DNA of 64,000 nt from an uncultured Actinomycetes bacterium (GCA_963783865.1 CAWAPD010000002.1:54950-118949), one strand, 5' to 3'; shown: positions 34,230 to 49,748, numbered from the stretch's first letter. Notes: generated by a model not told the origin, from the letters alone. Translations and numbers: made by a program.

Positions 34230-35682
34230 CTACGTGTCGAAGCCCAGGCCCAGCCGGTCGAGCGCGCGCAACCACAGGTTGCGCGCGCCCTCGCGCGCAT
34301 CGGCGCGACCCATCGACCACGAGGTCAGGCCGATCGCCCCGGCCCGCAGCGGCTCGGGCGGCCAGGGGATGGGCTTGGTCGTGGTGAGCCGCAGCCGGGT
34401 GAGCTCGCCGTCGCACCCGTCGAGGAGGTCGAGGGCGACCAGCGCTCCGAACCGGGTCTCTCCTACGCCCATGCCGGTGTAGCCGGCCGCGTAGGCCACG
34501 CGGCCGTCGTGGGACGTGCCCCAGAACGGGCAGAAGCGGGTGCAGGTGTCGATCACGCCGGCCCAGGCGTGCGAGAAGCGTAGGCCCTGCAACTGCGGGA
34601 ACGTCTCGAAGAACTGCACGGCGAGCTTCTCGAAGGTCGCCGGACGCCGCTCGAGGTCGGGTGAGATGGCGCTCCCGAAGTGGTAGACGGCATCGTAGCC
34701 GCCCCACAGGATGCGGCCATCGGCCGTGCGCCGGTAGTAGTGGAAGCGGTTGCCGGCGTCGGAGACGCCCTGGTACCGGCGCCAGCCGACGGCCGCCCAC
34801 TGCTCGTCGCTCAGCGGCTCCGTCATCAGGGCGTGGTCGTAGACGGGCACGATGCGCCGGCGCAGCGAGCCGACCAGCCCCGGGAAGGCGTTGGTCGCGA
34901 GCATCACGCGGCGGGCGCTCAGGGCGCCGCCGGAGGTCCGCAGGACCAGGGCGGCGCCCTGCCTGTCCATCGCTTCGACGCGCGTCCCTTCGAAGAACCG
35001 CACGCCGAGGTCGTGCGCGGCGCGCGCCAGCCCCCAGGTGAGCGCCGCCGGGTCGACCATGGCGCACTCGTCCTTCTTCCAGAGGCCGGCCAGGTAGGTC
35101 GGCGAGGCGATCTCGTCGCGCAACGCCGGCCCGTCGAGCCACTCGACCTCGTGGCCAGCGGCGGCCAACTCGTCGCGCGCCTCGGCCAGGTCGCCGACCT
35201 GCCACGGGGCGACGGCGACGTCGATCTCGCCCGTGCGGCGCCAGTCACAGTCGACGCCGTGGCCGCGCGACGGCGCGCTCCACCTCGTCGAGGTTCTCCA
35301 TGCCCAGGCGCTCGAGCGTGTCGACCTCGTCCGGGAACCGTGCCAGCCCGTTCCCGATGCCGTGGGTCAGCGTCGCCATGCAGAAGCCACCGTTGCGCCC
35401 CGACGCCTCCCAGCCGACCCGCTCCGCCTCGAGCAGGACGACCTCGCGGTCGGGGTCGCGCTCCTTGGCCAGCAGGGCCGTCCACACGCCGGTCAGCCCG
35501 CCGCCGACGACCGCGAGGTCGCAGCCGTCGAGGCCGTCGAGCGGCGGGGCCGGCTCGGGGGCCGCCGGGCTGTCGAGCCAGAACGGCACCGGCCGCGCCC
35601 CATCGAGGGCGCGCAGGGCGGCGTCACGGTCGATCGAGGGCGGGACGGCGCCGGAGTGAAGGTGGAGCCGGGGCCTCGCCAC
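34230..35682 (-). pseudogene. FAD-dependent oxidoreductase (DAO family, gamma-glutamylputrescine-oxidase-like) split by a 1-nt frameshift near 35263
   Basis: The N-terminal ORF (35245-35682) carries 'DLAVVGGGLTGVWTA'. The C-terminal ORF (34230-35168) carries the rest. Shifting frame at CGCGGCCAC restores '..EVERAVARHGVDCDWRRTGEIDVAVAPWQVGDLAEARDELAAAGHEVEW..'. Confidence 0.85.
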
Positions 35683-38044: not shown

Positions 38045-38677
38045 TCAGGGCGTCGAGCCCGACTCTTCGCCGCCGCCCTCGAGCTTCGTGACCCGCCAGT
38101 CCCCGTCGCTGCCGCGGGTCATCTGGGCCGTCAAGTCGACCACGTCGCTCGTCGACGCGTCGACCCACTCGCCGTTCGCGTCCTGCTTCTGACCCCTGGC
38201 CCACTGCGTGACCGTGGCCGTGACCGTCGCCTGCGAGCCGTCCACCACGATCGTGTGGATGGTGACGTTGGAGACGCCCGCGCCCAGTGGGTAGTAGCCG
38301 GGGTCACTCTCGGCGGCGATGCCGCGGTCGAGGCCCGCCTTCGCCTGCACGGCGGCGTCGCCCGAGAAGTAGCGGGCGATGGTCGCCTCGGCGATCGCCC
38401 GCTGGTGCGCCAGCTCCGCCGCCGGCGGCGCGGCCGCGTTCTGCCCGGGGCCCAGCGGCTCGCGTGTGCCTGCCGGCGCCGTCACCGCCATCCGCGCCGC
38501 CATCGCCTCGCGGAACGCGATCTCCACTCTCGTATCTTGCGGTTGACAGCCGGCGGCCGAGATCAGCGCCCGGCCGAAGACCGCGAGCACAAGCGCCATG
38601 ATGAGCAGGAGGGCCACACGCACGTCCCAGGCGCTGCGGGGGACGATCCAGGCGCCGATCCTTCGCGGGGCGCTCAC
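38045..38677 (-). CDS. Membrane-anchored hypothetical protein
   Basis: N-terminal TM 'VRVALLLIMALVLAVFG' followed by a soluble domain. No family recognised. Confidence 0.55.
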   Translation of the reverse strand: MSAPRRIGAWIVPRSAWDVRVALLLIMALVLAVFGRALISAAGCQPQDTRVEIAFREAMAARMAVTAPAGTREPLGPGQNAAAPPAAELAHQRAIAEATIARYFSGDAAVQAKAGLDRGIAAESDPGYYPLGAGVSNVTIHTIVVDGSQATVTATVTQWARGQKQDANGEWVDASTSDVVDLTAQMTRGSDGDWRVTKLEGGGEESGSTP

Positions 38678-38882: not shown

Positions 38883-41305
38883 CTACAGGGCGTCGAGCCC
38901 GGCGATCGCCAGCCAGATCGGACCCAGCCAGAAGTTCAGGCTGGACGACGGCGACGCGCTCGGCACAGGCGTGCTCGAGCTCGGGCTCCCCGACGGCGTC
39001 GGGGAGGCGCTCGCCGAGGCGGTCGGTGATGCGCTGGAACTCGGGGACGGACTGGGCGACGGCTTGGCGAACGTGCTCGGAGTCGCCGACGGCGTCGTCG
39101 ACGGCGCCACCGTCGGCCGCACCGACGAAGGCGGCGAGGAGCTCGGTGTCGGATCCGCCGTCGCGCCGACGCCGACGATCTCGACGGCGACCGGCAGCCG
39201 CGTCAGCTGCGCGCCACCCGAGGCCGGCCTGACGTTGAAGGTGACCGTCCCCTGCAGGTCTGCAAGGGCCGTACCCGCGGGGACGCAGAGCTCGAAGGCG
39301 AGCTTCTGCGTCTGCCCGGCCGCCAGCGTCACGCCGCCGTGGATGATGTCGCCGTGAGCGTCGCGGAAGCCGACTCCCCGGACCAGCGTGGCGACCGGCC
39401 CGGAAAGGGTGAAGGTCAGCGTCGCGGCCCCGGAGCTCGTCGACGTCAGGTCGAGCACGTCGTCGTAGACGGCCTTCTCGGTCCCCACCACCTCATCCCC
39501 GAAGTCGAGGGAGAGGTTGCCCTGCTTGTCTGAGGTGGCGATCGGTGCCTGCTGGGGGCAGCCGGTGGTCGAGTAGTGGGTGGCCTGGGAGCTCCCCGGA
39601 GCGAAGCTCAGGCAGGGCTTCTGGGCCAGGACCTTCACGGTCATCGGGATGACGTGGCTCTCGGCGCCGCCGACCACGGCCACCGTCAGGCTGCCGGTGT
39701 AGGTGCCGGGGGCGGTCGCGGCCGGCACGACGATCTTGACCGCGACGCTGCGCGTCTGCTTGGGGTTGAGGGCGCCGCCGGTCTTGTCGGAGGCGAAGCC
39801 GACGCTGGCGATCAGGGGCGCGATCGCCCCGCTGGGCGTGAACGAGACCTTGAGCGCGGCCGGGGCCGAGGAGGTGATGCGGAAGACGTCCGACCAGCTG
39901 GTCTGGCTGCCCACCACCTCATCCCCGAAGTCGAGGGAGAGGTTGCCCTGCTTGTCTGAGGTGGCGATCGGTGCCTGCTGGGGGCAGCCGGTGGTCGAGT
40001 AGTGGGTGGCCTGGGAGCTCCCCGGAGCGAAGCTCAGGCAGGGCTTCTGGGCCAGGACCTTCACGGTCATCGGGATGACGTGGCTCTCGGCGCCGCCGAC
40101 CACGGCCACCGTCAGGCTGCCGGTGTAGGTGCCGGGGGCGGTCGCGGCCGGCACGACGATCTTGACCGCGACGCTGCGCGTCTGCTTGGGGTTGAGGGCG
40201 CCGCCGGTCTTGTCGGAGGCGAAGCCGACGCTGGCGATCAGGGGCGCGATCGCCCCGCTGGGCGTGAACGAGACCTTGAGCGCGGCCGGGGCCGAGGAGG
40301 TGATGCGGAAGACGTCCGACCAGCTGGTCTGGTGCCCACCACCAGGTCCCCGAAGTCGAGGGAGAGGTTGCCCTGCTTGTCTGAGGTGGCGATCGGTGCC
40401 TGCTGGGGGCAGCCGGTGGTCGAGTAGTGGGTGGCCTGGGAGCTCCCCGGAGCGAAGCTCAGGCAGGGCTTCTGGGCCAGGACCTTCACGGTCATCGGGA
40501 TGACGTGGCTCTCGGCGCCGCCGACCACGGCCACCGTCAGGCTGCCGGTGTAGGTGCCGGGGGCGGTCGCGGCCGGCACGACGATCTTGACCGCGACGCT
40601 GCGCGTCTGCTTGGGGTTGAGGGCGCCGCCGGTCTTGTCGGAGGCGAAGCCGACGCTGGCGATCAGGGGCGCGATCGCCCCGCTGGGCGTGAACGAGACC
40701 TTGAGCGCGGCCGGGGCCGAGGAGGTGATGCGGAAGACGTCCGACCAGCTGGTCTGGCTGCCCACCACCAGGTCCCCGAAGTCGAGGGCGAGGTTGCCCT
40801 GCTTGTCTGAGGTGGCGATCGGTGCCTGCTGGGGGCAGCCGGTGGTCGAGTAGTGGGTGGCCTTCGAGCAGCCGGGGGCGAAGTGGAGGTTGTCGCCCCA
40901 GGTGCCGGTCGAGATCGTGTTGCCGGCGACCGACGGTGACGTCGTCCACCAGGCCAGAGCCTGCGACACCCCCAAGACGACCACGAGCAGCGTGGCCGCC
41001 ATGACTGCGACGCGCCGGCCAAGTGGCTTGCGGCGAGGCCGGCGATGCGCAACCTCGATCGGCAGGCTCGCCGGCCGCGCCGGGCCGGCACGCCGCCGCG
41101 CAGAGAGCTCGATTGGGATCGGCACCACGCGCGGCTTGGGGACAGCCGGGGGCCGCCACTCCATCGGAGCGACGACATCGTGCTCGAGCAGGTGCGACCG
41201 CAGGTGCCAGCGGTTGGCGAACGTCGCGCCGCAGTGCGAGCACACGAAGACGACCGACCCTGTCATCGGCTCACCGTCTTGACCACCCTGGTCTTTCGGC
41301 CTCAT
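38883..41305 (-). pseudogene. Large surface repeat protein: N-terminal C2H2 zinc finger, TM/SipW-type signal-like segment, 3 near-identical + 1 divergent ~142-aa repeats, S/T/P linker, C-terminal hydrophobic tail. Interrupted by a 1-nt deletion at ~40332/40333
   Basis: Two overlapping track ORFs (40238-41305 and 38883-41243) carry the same repeat sequence in different frames. Intact copies read GGCAGCCAGACCAGCTGG (GSQTSW). Copy 2 reads GGCACCAGACCAGCTGG. The likely start is ATG 41269 (MTGSVVF..) or ATG 41305. Confidence 0.8.
39484..40865 (-). repeat. Tandem direct repeat, unit 426 bp, about 3.2 copies, near-identical
   Basis: Unit starts (CCCACCACC..) at 39484, 39910, 40335 and 40761. The antisense track ORFs at 39576, 40002 and 40427 give identical 110-aa translations. 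The differences are a 1-nt deletion in copy 2 and CTCATC versus CAGGTC at the junctions. Confidence 0.95.
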
Positions 41306-41323
41306 GTCCGGTCACCGGGCCAC

Positions 41324-41357
41324 CGGGCGGGGCGGCGGCAAGCCGCCGCCCCGCCCG
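41324..41357 (-). terminator. Perfect hairpin (16-bp stem) after the TasA-like gene
   Basis: CGGGCGGGGCGGCGGC-AA-GCCGCCGCCCCGCCCG, 14 nt downstream of the stop at 41371. Confidence 0.55.
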
Positions 41358-41370
41358 GCAAGGCGCTATC

Positions 41371-42039
41371 TCACCACCCGCCCGCGGCGTCGAACTGCTC
41401 GACCTGCTCACCGTGCAAGTTGATCGAGAAGCCGACGGTCTTGCCCTGCGTGTCGTTGCCGGCGGTCTGGTCGAGCCAGACGGCGATCTTGTAGACGCCG
41501 GTCTCGCCGGGGTTGATCGGGGTCTTCACACCGGTGCCGTTCAGACCACTGGTGCTGCCCAGATAGACCTTGCCCTGGGCCGAGCTGTTCCAGATCGTGC
41601 CCAGCATGCCGCCGAACACCTGGTAGTTGCCTGTGTTGTTGAAGGTGTTGGTCCAGCCGCTGTTGTTGGTCGCGGGGTTCAGCCAGATGCGGACGTGCAC
41701 GTAGTCGACGAGGCCCACGTAGCCGGCCGGGTCGGCGAGGAACACGTAGAACATCAACGGTACGGACCCCTGGTTCTGGACGTAGATGTAACTCACGCTC
41801 GGGTAGGTGCTGTCCGGCAGGGATCCCGTCAGATCCGCCGGCGGGTCGACCTGGGGCACGAGGCCACTTAAGGCGATCGGCGCGCCACCTACGACGAGGG
41901 TCGCGGTGTCCGACGTGAGTGTGTTGCCTCCCACGGCCGGGTCGCTCGTCCACCACCCGAAGGCGACACCCGCTAGGGCCGTGGCGGCCGCCAGCACGAC
42001 GACAACGATGAGCGCGACGATGAGCGTCTTTCTCTTCAT
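41371..42039 (-). CDS. Secreted protein with TasA/camelysin (SipW-type signal) N-terminal motif
   Basis: ATG 42039 after SD AAGGGGGGA. Signal 'KTLIVALIVVVVLAAATALAGVAFGWW' followed by 'TSDPAVGGNTLTSDTATL'. This resembles the A-x-F-S-D-x5-N-x-F-x-x-G-T-L signature after SipW-type signal peptides. Confidence 0.7.
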   Translation of the reverse strand: MKRKTLIVALIVVVVLAAATALAGVAFGWWTSDPAVGGNTLTSDTATLVVGGAPIALSGLVPQVDPPADLTGSLPDSTYPSVSYIYVQNQGSVPLMFYVFLADPAGYVGLVDYVHVRIWLNPATNNSGWTNTFNNTGNYQVFGGMLGTIWNSSAQGKVYLGSTSGLNGTGVKTPINPGETGVYKIAVWLDQTAGNDTQGKTVGFSINLHGEQVEQFDAAGGW

Positions 42040-42464
42040 TGGTCCCCCCTTCAAACTGCCTAAGAAGAAGTCAGGCCGCGCGACAAGCGCGGCCGGAACG
42101 GCTAGCTCTCACACCCGCATCCCCCCTTTGGCGGGAGCCGGAGCTCCACGGCGCCGCCGCGCAGCACACGAACGCTACGCATGCAGCGGCGCGGTACTCT
42201 TTTCGAAGAACTCGAACGACGGTGAGGCCGCACAGGAACGCGCAGGAAGATGGCGGCGTGAAGCCGTGCGACCAACGTGCGGAATCACATGTGCGACCAC
42301 AGGGCCCACCCCCCCGAGCGTCGCGTTCCCAGACTCCCGTAAGGAGACAGTTCTATGACGGCACTACGAAAGGTTCAAGCGTTTGTCTGTAGCCAGTTCA
42401 GACAACAGCGGCCGGGCTCGGCGAGACGGAGGTCGCGCGCTCTGTGGACGGAGGAAAGGAGAGA

Positions 42465-43939: not shown

Positions 43940-45105
43940 TCATTTCTTCTTCTGCCCGTCGCCGCTCGCCCGCCACACGAGGTAGTCGTGTACGAACGGG
44001 TCGAGGTCGCCGTCGAGCACCGCCTGGGTGTTGCCGGTCTCGTGCTGGGTGCGCAGGTCCTTGACCATCTGGTACGGGTGCAGGACGTAGCTGCGGATCT
44101 GCGAGCCGAAGTTGACGTCGAGCTGCTCGCCCCGCTCCTTGGCCAGCGCCTCGGCGTGCTTGCGCTCCTCGAGCTCGAGAAGACGCGACTTGAGCATGCG
44201 CATCGCGGTCTGGCGGTTGGAGATCTGCGAACGCTCGTTCTGGCACTGCACGACGATGCCGGTCGGGATGTGGGTGATCCGCACCGCCGAGCTCGTCTTG
44301 TTGACGTGCTGGCCGCCGGCGCCGCTCGAGCGGTAGGTGTCGATGCGCAGGTCGCCCTCGTCGATCTCGATCTCGACGTCGTCGCTCACGAGCGGGCCGA
44401 CCTCGACGGCGGCGAAGCTGGTGTGACGGCGGTTGGCCGAGTCGAAGGGACTCAGGCGGACCAGGCGGTGGACGCCCTTCTCCGAGGACAGCAGGCCGTA
44501 GACGTTCTCGCCTTCGACGCTGATCGTCGCGCTCGTGATGCCGGCCTCGCCGCCCTCTTGCGTGTCGTTCACCTCGGCCTTGAAGCCGCGGCGTTCGAAC
44601 CAGCGCAGGTACATGCGCAGGAGCATCTCGGCCCAGTCCTGCGACTCGGTGCCGCCGGCGCCGGGGTGGATCGTGACGATGGCGCCGCCCTCGTCGTAGC
44701 GGCCGCTGAAGAAGCGCTGCTCCTCGCCGCGCTCGAGCTCGCGCTCGAGGTCGTGCACGCCGCGGGAGAGTTCCGAGAGGAGCTCGGCGTCGACCGCGTC
44801 GGCGCCGAGCTCCTCGCGGACCAGCTCCTCGGTGGTCTCGAGGTCGCCGAACCGGCTCTCGAGGGCCGTGAAGTCCTCGAGGCGGCGCTTGTGCCGGCTG
44901 TACTCGGCCGACACCGCCTGCGCCGCCTCCTGGTCGTTCCAGAAGTCGGCGGCGCGCATGCGCTCCTCGAGAGCCGGCGATGCGTGCGGTCAGGGCAGGG
45001 GGGTCAAAGATAGCTCCGCAGCCAGCTCAGGCGTTCGGAACACGCCTTGAGCCGCTCGCGGAGCGCGTCGAGCTCGGTGTAGGCATCGGGGACGGTCATC
45101 GTCAT
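43940..45105 (-). CDS. prfB: Peptide chain release factor 2, with programmed +1 frameshift plus one extra unprogrammed frame break
   Basis: 'SGAGGQHVNKTSSAVRITH' (GGQ) and 'SPF' lie in the 43940-44959 frame. The N-terminal ORF 'MTVPDAYTELDALRERLKACSERLSWLRSYL*' ends in CTT-TGA-C. See findings for the second break near 44975. Confidence 0.92.
45003..45009 (-). other. prfB: Canonical RF2 programmed +1 frameshift site CUU UGA C
   Basis: The minus strand reads GCGGAGC-TAT-CTT-TGA-C. An SD-like GGAG lies upstream, as in the E. coli AGGGGG-TAT-CTT-TGA-C arrangement. Confidence 0.85.
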
Positions 45106-45221: not shown

Positions 45222-47084
45222 ATGATGTATCCGTGTATGCTTTTGCCGAGAACGGGGGGGTCGGGAAGAAGGTGCCGCATAGCCACAGATGACCCGAGAG
45301 AGGGCGAGCAGCCGCTCGCCGACATCGCCACCCACGACGCCCTCGGCGTGGGCGTCGTCGTTTGCGACGCCAACGGCACGGTCCTGCGCATCAACGACGT
45401 CGCCGCCGAGCTCATCGGTGTCGGTGCAGAGGCCGGCCGCACCGAACGCACCGCGGCCTACAACCGCTTCGAGGCTCGTCTGCGGCTGGCCGACGGCTCG
45501 CCGCTGACGAGTTCCGAGACCCCACTGCGTATGGGGCTCAAGCTGGGACGACCGGTCTCGCAGCGCGTCCTGGGCGTGGTCGGCAGCGACGGCACGCTCA
45601 GCCGCTGGGTCCAGGTCACCAGCGAGCCGCTCCTCGGCGTCTCGGAGGGGGAGCAGGTCGGCGCCTTCATCGTCCTCGTCGACGTCACCGAGATCCGCCT
45701 CGCCGAGACGCGGGCGCAGCTCGCCGCGAGCGAGCGCGACCTCACCACGGTGACCGACCGCGACCAGCTCGAGGCGCGCCTGCAGGGTCTGGTCGGCAGG
45801 GCGCAGGCCACCGCGGGACGCTTCGCCGTCGTCGCCCTCGGCATCGACCGCTTCAAGACCGTGCACGACAGCCTCGGTCACGCGCTGACCGAGCAGCTCG
45901 AGCATGCAGTGACCGACCGTCTGCGCCGCGACCTGCGCGGCGACGACGTGGTGGCGCGCACCGGGGAGGGCGACTTCGTGCTGCTCCTGTCGGGCACCGA
46001 CACCGCCGTCGACGTCACCCGCGCCGTCGAGCGCATCAAGAGCGCCTTCGACCACCGCTGGGAGATCTCGGGTCAGGAGTTCCTGCTCACGCCGAGCATG
46101 GGCATCGCGCAGTTCCCGGGCGACGGCGACAACACCGATCTGCTGTTGCGCAATGCTGCCGCCTCGATGCGCCGCGCCCAGCAGGCCGGCGGCAACACCT
46201 GGGAGTTCTTCCACGAGGGGATGCACGACGAGGGCAGCGATCGCCTCGGCATGGAGAGCCGCCTGCACCGGGCCCTCGAGCTGGGCCACTTCGTGCTCAA
46301 CTTCCAGCCCCAGATCGACAGCTACAGCGGCGCCGTGCTGGGCGTCGAGGCGTTGCTGCGCTGGCAGGACCCCGAACGCGGCCTCATCCCTCCGGGCGAC
46401 TTCATCCCGCTGGCCGAGGAGACCGGCCTCATGCTGCCGATCGGTGAGTGGGTGCTCGAGACCGCCTGTCAGCAGGCGGTGCAGTGGGCGAACGGCGAAG
46501 AGGGCGCCCGCATGGCCGTGAACGTCTCGCCGCGCCAGTTCGCCCAGCAGGACATCGTCGGTCTCGTGCGCCGCGTGCTCGAGGATACCGGCCTGCCGGC
46601 TCACCTCCTCGAGATCGAGATCACCGAGTCGATGGCCATCCAGGACCCTGAGCGCACCATCGACCTGCTGAACGGCCTCAAGCGCCTGGGCGTGCGCGTG
46701 GCGCTCGACGACTTCGGCACCGGCTACTCCTCGCTCAGCCACCTCGCGCGGCTGCCGATCGACACGGTCAAGATCGACCGGAGCTTCGTGATGAACCTCG
46801 AAGAGGCGCGGGAGCACATCGTCGTCGCGACCTCGATCATCGCCCTCGGCCACCGGCTGGGGCTGACGGTCGTGGCCGAGGGCGTCGAGACCCACGAGCA
46901 GGCCGCGTTCCTCGGGGCCGAGTCGTGCGACGTGCTGCAGGGCTTCCTGTTCAGCCGGCCGATCCCGTCGGAGGAGTGCTCCAAGATCATGACCACGGGG
47001 ACCTCGGCCTACACGAAGCTGCTCGAGGACGCCGCCGCCAGGCTGGCAGAGCGCATGAGCAGCGGAGGGTTCGGGCAGAACTAG
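45222..47084 (+). CDS. PAS - degenerate GGDEF - EAL signalling protein (likely c-di-GMP phosphodiesterase)
   Basis: PAS-like N-terminus. The GGDEF position reads 'GEGDF' (45963-45977). EAL domain features: 'VEALLRW', 'DDFGTGYSSL' and 'VVAEGVET..Q..L'. The start codon is uncertain. Confidence 0.88.
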   Translation: MMYPCMLLPRTGGSGRRCRIATDDPREGEQPLADIATHDALGVGVVVCDANGTVLRINDVAAELIGVGAEAGRTERTAAYNRFEARLRLADGSPLTSSETPLRMGLKLGRPVSQRVLGVVGSDGTLSRWVQVTSEPLLGVSEGEQVGAFIVLVDVTEIRLAETRAQLAASERDLTTVTDRDQLEARLQGLVGRAQATAGRFAVVALGIDRFKTVHDSLGHALTEQLEHAVTDRLRRDLRGDDVVARTGEGDFVLLLSGTDTAVDVTRAVERIKSAFDHRWEISGQEFLLTPSMGIAQFPGDGDNTDLLLRNAAASMRRAQQAGGNTWEFFHEGMHDEGSDRLGMESRLHRALELGHFVLNFQPQIDSYSGAVLGVEALLRWQDPERGLIPPGDFIPLAEETGLMLPIGEWVLETACQQAVQWANGEEGARMAVNVSPRQFAQQDIVGLVRRVLEDTGLPAHLLEIEITESMAIQDPERTIDLLNGLKRLGVRVALDDFGTGYSSLSHLARLPIDTVKIDRSFVMNLEEAREHIVVATSIIALGHRLGLTVVAEGVETHEQAAFLGAESCDVLQGFLFSRPIPSEECSKIMTTGTSAYTKLLEDAAARLAERMSSGGFGQN

Positions 47085-47102: not shown

Positions 47103-49748
<2,646 letters not shown>

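Follow-up and report, generated by a model that had tools for sequence, protein, structure and literature searches.

Why would a bacterial surface protein begin with a zinc finger of the eukaryotic type? The classical C2H2 finger is the commonest DNA-binding domain of eukaryotes. It has been described as "practically absent in bacteria", where it is annotated in 0.003% of proteins and where the same survey study characterised no example (PMC3541406), and the bacterial zinc finger that has been studied is of the structurally distinct Ros/MucR type (PMC9779718). The question is raised by a 64,000-nucleotide stretch of DNA from an uncultured Actinomycetes bacterium (GCA_963783865.1, CAWAPD010000002.1:54950-118949; hereafter the window), in which an earlier note had pointed to a classical C2H2 finger at the cytoplasmic N-terminus of a repeat protein with a single transmembrane segment. 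From its sequence and that of its relatives, we conclude that this finger is real, translated and under selection, and that the finger and a short motif behind it form a portable module that appears to be spread over envelope and exopolysaccharide-cluster proteins in an uncultured Actinomycetes lineage. The identity of the finger and the architecture of the protein can be stated with high confidence; the role that we propose for them is tentative.

The motif lies at 41242..41180 (-) and, as the note had read it, corresponds to residues 22-42 (CSHCGATFANRWHLRSHLLEH) of the open reading frame (ORF) 41305..40238 (-), whose translation begins MRPKDQGGQDGEPMTGSVVFVCSHCGATFANRWHLRSHLLEHDVV. F20, two positions ahead of the first Cys, completes the pattern F-x-C-x2-C-x3-F-x5-L-x2-H-x3-H, and the complete finger (FVCSHCGATFANRWHLRSHLLEH; 41180..41248, -) has C22, C25, H38 and H42 as proposed zinc ligands and F20, F29 and L35 as its hydrophobic core. 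The spacing C-x2-C-x12-H-x3-H occurs a single time in the six-frame translation of the window; in 200 Markov-shuffled windows, the chance expectation per window is 0.045 when the spacing alone is required and 0 when the hydrophobic residues are required too. GC content in the frame of the finger is 0.90-0.93 at third codon positions (GC3) versus 0.43-0.53 at second positions (GC2), which is the coding signature of a genome of 70-72% GC, and we therefore read the region as coding. A 171-nt contig assembled independently from another public run covers 41095-41265 with 0 differences, and public runs that contain the window sequence come from soil, freshwater-sediment and peat metagenomes.

Searches with hidden Markov models (HMMs) of Pfam place the finger in the classical class. 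The window protein matches PF00096 (zf-C2H2) over the entire profile (1-23/23; 23.7 bits, E 6e-5) and zf-C2H2_4 at 23.3 bits, while orthologues and paralogues with two fingers exceed the Pfam gathering score at 31-41 bits; precomputed Pfam C2H2 hits already exist for the proteins P0004 and P0151. The distinction that the note drew between this finger and the zf-HC2 type holds, as no match to PF13490 was obtained at E values up to 1. Membership in the ZAS anti-sigma family (zf-HC2, PF13490) is thus ruled out by motif and by profile, and membership in Ros/MucR (PF05443) by the x12 spacing and the absence of an HMM match at E up to 1. A ToxR-like protein is ruled out as well: in the cytoplasmic part Pfam sees only C2H2 models, and an OmpR-type winged helix was not found. 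A phmmer search of PDB sequences returns eukaryotic-type C2H2 proteins only, e.g., PRDM9, the designed protein Aart and ZBTB24, and in these alignments the 'TGxxxF' ahead of the window finger resembles an inter-finger linker.

The predicted fold agrees with this assignment. AlphaFold2, run on an alignment of two sequences, models the N-terminus as a beta-beta-alpha fold over residues 20-41 and with a predicted local distance difference test score (pLDDT) of ~85; the strands are at 20-21 and 28-29, and the helix is at 32-41. All of the best 50 Foldseek matches to this model in the PDB are C2H2 fingers, among which those of CTCF, SALL4 and Tramtrack superpose at 0.4-0.8 Å over 23-25 residues. 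We infer that the finger binds zinc.

A word-indexed search found one relative of the protein and an exhaustive HMMER search about 20; a profile of the 65-aa module alone gave no matches in the word-indexed database. Locus searches with a five-sequence alignment brought in sequence from three metagenome-assembled genomes and from several contigs of metagenomes, and the genomes behind the three genome-derived relatives are labelled uncultured Actinomycetes. Most relatives have two fingers. The note had made its reading depend on conservation of the Cys and His positions, and these are indeed conserved: F7, C9, C12, L22 and H25 (numbered from the second ATG of the gene; see below) are invariant in 11 orthologues, and H29 is kept in 10 of the 11, the single exception being a substitution by Cys. 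The C, C, F, L, H and H of the finger show no variation in a set of 13 module sequences, which come from five protein architectures. Differences among the finger codons of six loci are concentrated at the third position (143, versus 86 at the first and 82 at the second), and the ligand codons vary solely synonymously (TGT/TGC, CAC/CAT). Ligands that are invariant or nearly so, under codons that change synonymously, point to purifying selection on the zinc site.

The note had also allowed that the true start codon might lie downstream of the finger. This is not the case, as an ATG is found 6-7 codons before F-x-C in every locus. The N-termini at this conserved start read MKWAHATFEC, MVREPLTFAC and MTGERAIFEC in relatives and MTGSVVFVC in the window, and the true start of the window gene is, on this sequence comparison, most likely the second ATG, at 41266 (M14); counted from M14, the finger occupies residues 9-29, matching the relatives. 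A purely mechanical reading starts the ORF at the ATG at 41305, which is in frame with the finger. Upstream of the start codon, and downstream of a hairpin described below, an element 'GGGACATG' followed by a TAGGC-like sequence is conserved; it is found at 41295-41310 in the window and ~35 nt before the start ATG in L002, L005, L007-L009 and L011. The longer mechanical ORF arises because the ATG of this element (41305) shares, by coincidence, the reading frame of the finger. In P0020, a paralogue, the glycosyltransferase gene upstream and the finger ORF overlap in an ATGA, with which the finger ORF begins.

What follows the finger? The gene, taken from the likely start at 41266 and read through a 1-bp deletion considered below, spans 38883..41266 (-); the read-through product is 807 residues from ATG 41305 and about 794 from 41266. 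The order of finger, hydrophobic segment and repeats given in the note holds: the finger is followed by a basic stretch, one hydrophobic segment and repeated immunoglobulin (Ig)-like domains predicted to be extracytoplasmic, an architecture that recurs in homologues; the hydrophobic segment begins 56 residues after the finger, and not the roughly 45 that had been given. At a fixed distance of 17 residues from the finger is a conserved cytoplasmic motif, PRVVPIPIELSARRR (41090..41134, -), with the consensus RVxx[IV]PxELSxR, which together with the finger makes up one module of ~55 aa. V47, P51 and E53 of this motif are invariant in the 13 module sequences, whose parent proteins are of five C-terminal architectures. 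The cytoplasmic module is strongly basic (16 K/R versus 5 D/E in 85 aa), and the basic stretch HRRPRRKPLGRR directly precedes the hydrophobic segment VAVMAATLLVVVLGVSQALA (40952..41011, -), which has the features of a signal-anchor, or of the h- and c-regions of a signal peptide, and ends in A-L-A. AlphaFold2 places a helix at 95-121 over this segment (pLDDT 73-89). Across 11 homologues, one Ala of the A-x-A pair never varies and the second is conserved in at least 90%, and at the homologous position fingerless relatives have ordinary signal peptides. The motif just beyond the membrane, AWWTTSPSVAGNTISTGTWG (40895..40954, -), aligns with 'GAYFSDTKSGAFSGTLGTWG' of P0033, and this alignment makes it a homologue, as judged from sequence, of the AYFSD...G-T motif of SipW-dependent (TasA/camelysin-class) signal peptides.

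The predicted extracytoplasmic part is built from a 426-bp tandem repeat, present in 3.2 copies that are 99% identical (39484..40863, -; TRF and unit alignment). Each unit encodes one Ig-like beta-sandwich domain of ~142 aa (AlphaFold2 pLDDT 86, alignment of 29 sequences), for which Foldseek returns a GH123 N-domain, a PapD-like HYDIN domain and a sialidase Ig linker at E values of 1e-6 to 1e-5, and Pfam gives weak matches to Glyco_hydro_123_N_2 and NPCBM_assoc; a PDB sequence search with the unit gave nothing useful. A TasA-like ectodomain was considered and rejected, as the Foldseek matches describe a generic Ig-like sandwich. A divergent fourth beta-sandwich domain follows in the read-through translation (39165..39494, -), and a jackhmmer domain map finds the same terminal divergent unit in homologues. 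Next comes a stalk of 75 residues rich in Pro, Ser, Thr and Ala (38940..39164, -), whose GC content by codon position fits S/T/P/A codons and which is present in all full-length homologues, and then a C-terminal hydrophobic segment, LNFWLGPIWLAIAGLDAL (38886..38939, -), a putative membrane anchor with the stop codon directly after it. P0003 and P0005 end in the same hydrophobic segment followed by a KRRKRST/RRRRRSP tail, while the C-termini of other homologues carry a conserved amphipathic tail, ...SFFGSIAKAIASLI. Two C-terminal types are likewise seen after the stalk among P0002, P0058, P0152, P0153 and the window protein: a hydrophobic segment with a KRRKRS-type tail, of which the window copy stops right after the hydrophobic part, and an amphipathic ...A[SA]L[TA]SF[FV]G[SG][IL]A[KR]A[IV]ASL[IV]. 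Either type may be an unrecognised sorting signal.

The finger and its RVxx[IV]PxE motif recur on other membrane and envelope proteins. P0020 is a polytopic protein of 858 aa (L012 6001-8577) in a cluster of GT2, flippase, TagF-like and GH16 genes; P0122 is a DUF1616-like protein encoded between GT2 and GT4 genes (L013 1462-2127); P0026 is a small protein with several transmembrane segments, encoded beside a GH16 gene (L014 281-1057); and P0017 is a DUF5317 membrane protein with the module at its C-terminal end (L015 6001-6771) and with MMPL, HTH/cupin and RibD_C genes and no glycan genes as annotated neighbours. The orthologue P0004, an Ig-repeat protein like that of the window, belongs to a GT4/DUF2206/flippase/GH5/GT2 cluster. 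The presence of the module on polytopic proteins and at a C-terminus speaks against a role confined to signal peptides.

The gene directly upstream of the finger gene encodes a small secreted protein, which we call the partner, in the window and in 10 of the 11 further finger-gene loci examined (L002, L003, L005-L011 and L017). In the window, this gene occupies 41371..42054 (-), as defined by its ORF and GC3, and encodes ~222-227 aa with a signal peptide followed by AFGWWTSDPAVGGNTLTSDT, an N-terminus that resembles those of the TasA/SipW class. The partner proteins measure 200-245 aa and share an ordinary signal peptide with A[FY][GA]WW[TS]...GN.[VL][ST] after it; over its full length, the window partner is 39-44% identical to those of L005, L006 and L017 (39-40% for L005 and L017). 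The partners of L005 (19.1 bits) and L017 (22.4 bits) pass the cut-off of 19 for TIGR04088 (cognate_SipW), and a PDB sequence search with the partner protein gave nothing useful. Between the two genes, ViennaRNA predicts a perfect 17-bp GC-rich hairpin without a T-run (41322..41359, -). A perfect GC stem of 14-18 bp is found at the same place in all nine loci folded (the window, L002, L003 and L005-L010), and, as the stem sequences differ between loci, it is the structure rather than the sequence that is conserved. A possible role for the hairpin is to terminate or attenuate transcription, which would keep expression of the partner high relative to that of the anchor.

A related arrangement is found in L018 (1970-5835), where a TasA-like gene with a GAYLSDT motif is followed by P0033 and by a SipW-type signal peptidase, which passes TIGR02228 (53.1 bits versus a cut-off of 51.85) and is fused to an N-terminal Ig-like segment. 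P0033 is a fingerless Ig-repeat relative with OmpL47-type barrel domains and has no in-frame upstream extension. We regard a TasA/TapA-like pairing of the partner and finger genes as somewhat probable, and membership in a TapA-SipW-TasA-type system as partly demonstrated.

How might such a protein work? The explanation that we tentatively prefer, at slightly less than an even chance, is that it is the TapA-like large partner in a two-gene surface-matrix module and that its finger is a tethered docking module. The first gene would supply the small secreted protein, with a signal peptide of the TasA/SipW class, and would be followed by the hairpin and the finger gene. The finger pre-protein would insert with its N-terminus inside, and its first ~85 residues (from M14) would remain in the cytoplasm with the zinc-binding finger, the RVxx[IV]PxELS motif and the basic stretch; the basic stretch that precedes the hydrophobic segment suggests this orientation, as does the requirement of a Cys/His zinc site for a cytoplasmic location. 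The hydrophobic segment would be a signal-anchor of the SipW/TasA class ending in A-L-A, with four Ig-like domains, the Pro/Ser/Thr stalk and the C-terminal hydrophobic anchor predicted to lie outside the membrane. Homology to true signal peptides, the conserved A-x-A and the second anchor at the C-terminus suggest that the segment is probably cleaved at A-L-A. The module might dock envelope proteins to a shared cytoplasmic partner, e.g., a regulator or an assembly scaffold, and so link matrix export or assembly to intracellular events, a mode of action that would be closer to that of an anti-sigma cytoplasmic zinc domain than to that of a multi-finger DNA reader.

That the ligand is a protein is itself doubtful, although we place docking ahead of DNA reading for three features of the fingers: there are only one or two of them, with long and variable spacers that are not of the TGEKP type; finger 1 has Asp, Ser, Gly and Ala at helix positions -1, 2, 3 and 6; and position 3 of finger 2 varies between H, G, R and Q among close orthologues. 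The fusion of the module to polytopic enzymes, and in one case to a C-terminus, is a further reason. Several results weigh against the reading as a whole. The single window finger, at 23.7 bits, falls just under the PF00096 gathering score of 25.2, and the Foldseek E-values for the finger are 0.18 or higher and hence not significant, though for so short a domain they are uninformative. An NCBIfam scan of the window proteins gave no matches; the window partner has no TIGR04088 match in NCBIfam, and the finger protein aligns with all of that profile (1-34/34) but at 9.4 bits, below the cut-off of 19. Neither a SipW-type peptidase nor an [ST]GSMxP motif was found in the 64-kb window or in the finger-bearing loci searched, L018 being the only locus with one. 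No candidate cytoplasmic partner for the module was identified, no public RNA runs were found that cover the locus, and the window copy of the gene is frameshifted rather than one open frame. Finally, the excess of basic residues in the module and the precedent of AFV1p06, a single C2H2 finger of an archaeal virus that binds DNA (PMC3541406), keep nucleic-acid binding in contention.

We consider it rather unlikely, on balance, that the protein is a membrane-tethered regulator whose finger and basic flank bind DNA or RNA. Such binding could take place at the membrane, as in ToxR/CadC, or once cleavage by a signal peptidase and within the membrane has set the module free, and in both cases export of a matrix protein would feed back on gene expression. 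The fold is classically a DNA-binding one, N, R, W and R are conserved on the recognition helix of a basic module with KPRV/RRR flanks, and release is conceivable given an A-x-A site and a segment homologous to signal peptides that can be cleaved; a rhomboid protease gene also lies ~1 kb downstream in L002 and L003, but neither the window nor the remaining loci have one. The specificity positions, however, differ between close orthologues, the contacts of finger 1 are acidic or small, no conserved operator-like repeat was identified, and the polytopic and DUF5317 C-terminal fusions could not be freed by signal-peptide cleavage. Release in a narrower form, in which a finger stub left after SipW-type cleavage is freed by an intramembrane protease and tunes matrix or exopolysaccharide genes, strikes us as very unlikely; if true, the stub would be a stoichiometric 'export receipt' tying surface assembly to transcription. 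The same low estimate applies to a role in export, in which the finger would be an N-terminal extension of the signal peptide that holds, targets or times the pre-protein for the translocon or a SipW-type peptidase and is then discarded. Long N-extended signal peptides are found on surface proteins elsewhere among Gram-positives, fingerless relatives have true signal peptides homologous to the hydrophobic segment, the A-x-A site of this segment is conserved, and the C-terminal anchor makes an N-terminal one unnecessary. A stably folded zinc domain would nevertheless be an unusual export signal, and a module on polytopic proteins and on the C-terminus of a DUF5317 protein cannot extend a signal peptide.

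Two further alternatives concern whether there is a finger protein at all. If the motif were due to chance or untranslated, the real protein would start at the hydrophobic segment, as gene callers have annotated several relatives: the database proteins P0015 and P0021 begin at or inside that segment. In both contigs, however (L005 3542-5239 and L017 2140-3798, both short-read assemblies), the same frame stays open upstream across two intact fingers, up to the conserved start, MKWA... or MRARATF..., so that these 'fingerless' entries are gene-call truncations. With invariant ligands under synonymous codon change, coding-type GC3 and a chance expectation of at most 0.045 per window, we give an untranslated motif almost no credence. 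Rather, because gene callers have cut the fingers off several entries, the architecture is under-annotated in databases.

The other alternative is that the gene is a pseudogene in this genome and yields a 355-aa fragment with the finger, the transmembrane segment and ~1.5 Ig domains, or nothing functional. A 1-bp deletion (gggcaGccag to gggca-ccag) at 40332..40333 (-), in the second of three repeat copies, stands in the assembled sequence and splits the gene into ORFs of 355 and 423 aa, which the database holds as separate gene calls (the C-terminal piece is P0009); the public contigs that align to the region do not cover the deletion site. The GC3 signal, on the other hand, switches frame at the deletion and then continues at 0.9-1.0 to the end of the gene, and orthologues are intact, at 843 aa in L002 and L003 and also in short-read assemblies. 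Indels elsewhere in the window point to consensus errors in the assembly. One is in the essential gene prfB (44960-45012, -), which has a programmed +1 frameshift site, CTTTGAC, at 45009 and needs a second, unprogrammed 1-nt correction near 44975 (...ARIAG/LEERMRAADFW...). Another, also a probable assembly indel, splits a gene for an oxidoreductase dependent on flavin adenine dinucleotide (34230-35682, -) into two ORFs in different frames, of 145 and 312 aa, with a break near 35240. On these grounds the deletion in the finger gene is probably an assembly error, and a pseudogene is unlikely.

In the window and the further loci with examined flanks, the finger gene has no sigma-factor gene next to it. 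The rhomboid-family protease genes of L002 (6380-7288) and L003 (13326-14234) were read by eye, and a rhomboid was rejected as a conserved partner given its absence elsewhere. Neighbouring ORFs in L006 and at 38045-38677 of the window have no Pfam match. About 4 kb from the finger gene and next to secA, whose C-terminus has the usual zinc motif, the window encodes what by eye is a PAS-GGDEF-EAL protein of cyclic di-GMP turnover (45222-47084 and 47103-49748 for the pair of genes); no link between this neighbourhood and the finger gene was established.

The C2H2 domain itself is already known, as are automatic Pfam flags on some of these proteins. What is undescribed is a conserved bacterial architecture in which the finger extends a signal-anchor of the SipW/TasA class and tags membrane proteins of glycan clusters; a classical C2H2 finger anchored in a bacterial membrane was not found in a search of the full-text literature, the coverage of which is incomplete. 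A small family of bacterial envelope proteins thus uses one or two C2H2 fingers as a predicted membrane-tethered cytoplasmic domain. Should the module bind a regulator or a nucleic acid, this would be a new wiring of surface or biofilm-matrix assembly to the cytoplasm, and new evidence on how classical zinc fingers arose and spread beyond eukaryotes. The significance is bounded by an uncultured lineage, a small family and a function that is wholly inferred.

These proteins can be placed against several known systems. The window finger resembles classical TFIIIA/Krueppel fingers (PF00096/PF13894) in spacing, in its end-to-end profile match and in predicted fold, but it is bacterial and membrane-tethered, comes with one or two fingers without a TGEKP linker, and is part of a module with a conserved RVxx[IV]PxELS extension; its contact positions, with Trp at +2 in finger 2 and Asp, Gly and Ala in finger 1, are also unlike the classical ones. 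Ros, a soluble DNA-binding protein of alpha-proteobacteria, has the spacing C-x2-C-x9-H-x3-4-H, whereas the module described here has x12 spacing and a membrane tether. The two are alike in being bacterial Cys2His2 zinc domains with a single finger inside a unit of ~55-60 aa, and Ros/MucR proteins are often linked to the regulation of exopolysaccharides and surface components (PMC9779718). AFV1p06 (PDB 2LVH), which is among the Foldseek matches (root-mean-square deviation 2.1 Å over 30 residues), is likewise a non-eukaryotic protein with one finger of classical fold and extensions, but this protein of an archaeal virus is soluble and has no fourth ligand; no bacterial homologue of it was found (PMC3541406).

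In overall layout, the finger protein can be compared with membrane proteins of other classes. ToxR, CadC and TcpP share with it an N-terminal cytoplasmic domain of DNA-binding type, a single transmembrane segment and an extracytoplasmic domain, but their cytoplasmic domain is an OmpR-type winged helix and their outer domain is a sensor, in place of the tandem Ig-like repeat, stalk and anchor found here. The TapA-SipW-TasA system of Bacillus subtilis offers the same combination of a small secreted fibre-like protein and a larger accessory or anchor protein, with a related motif after the signal peptide. It differs in that the finger loci have no nearby SipW-type gene, the window proteins score below the TIGR04088 cut-off, and the ectodomain is Ig-like rather than TasA-like; TapA is not known to have a cytoplasmic zinc finger. 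ZAS anti-sigma factors, e.g., RsrA and RslA, have their zinc site in an H-x3-C-x2-C motif within a helical domain, and the finger loci examined have no adjacent sigma-factor gene, but the plan of an N-terminal cytoplasmic zinc domain, one transmembrane segment and an extracytoplasmic domain is the same. In the ZAS proteins, this zinc domain binds a protein, which makes them the closest analogue for how the finger module may act.

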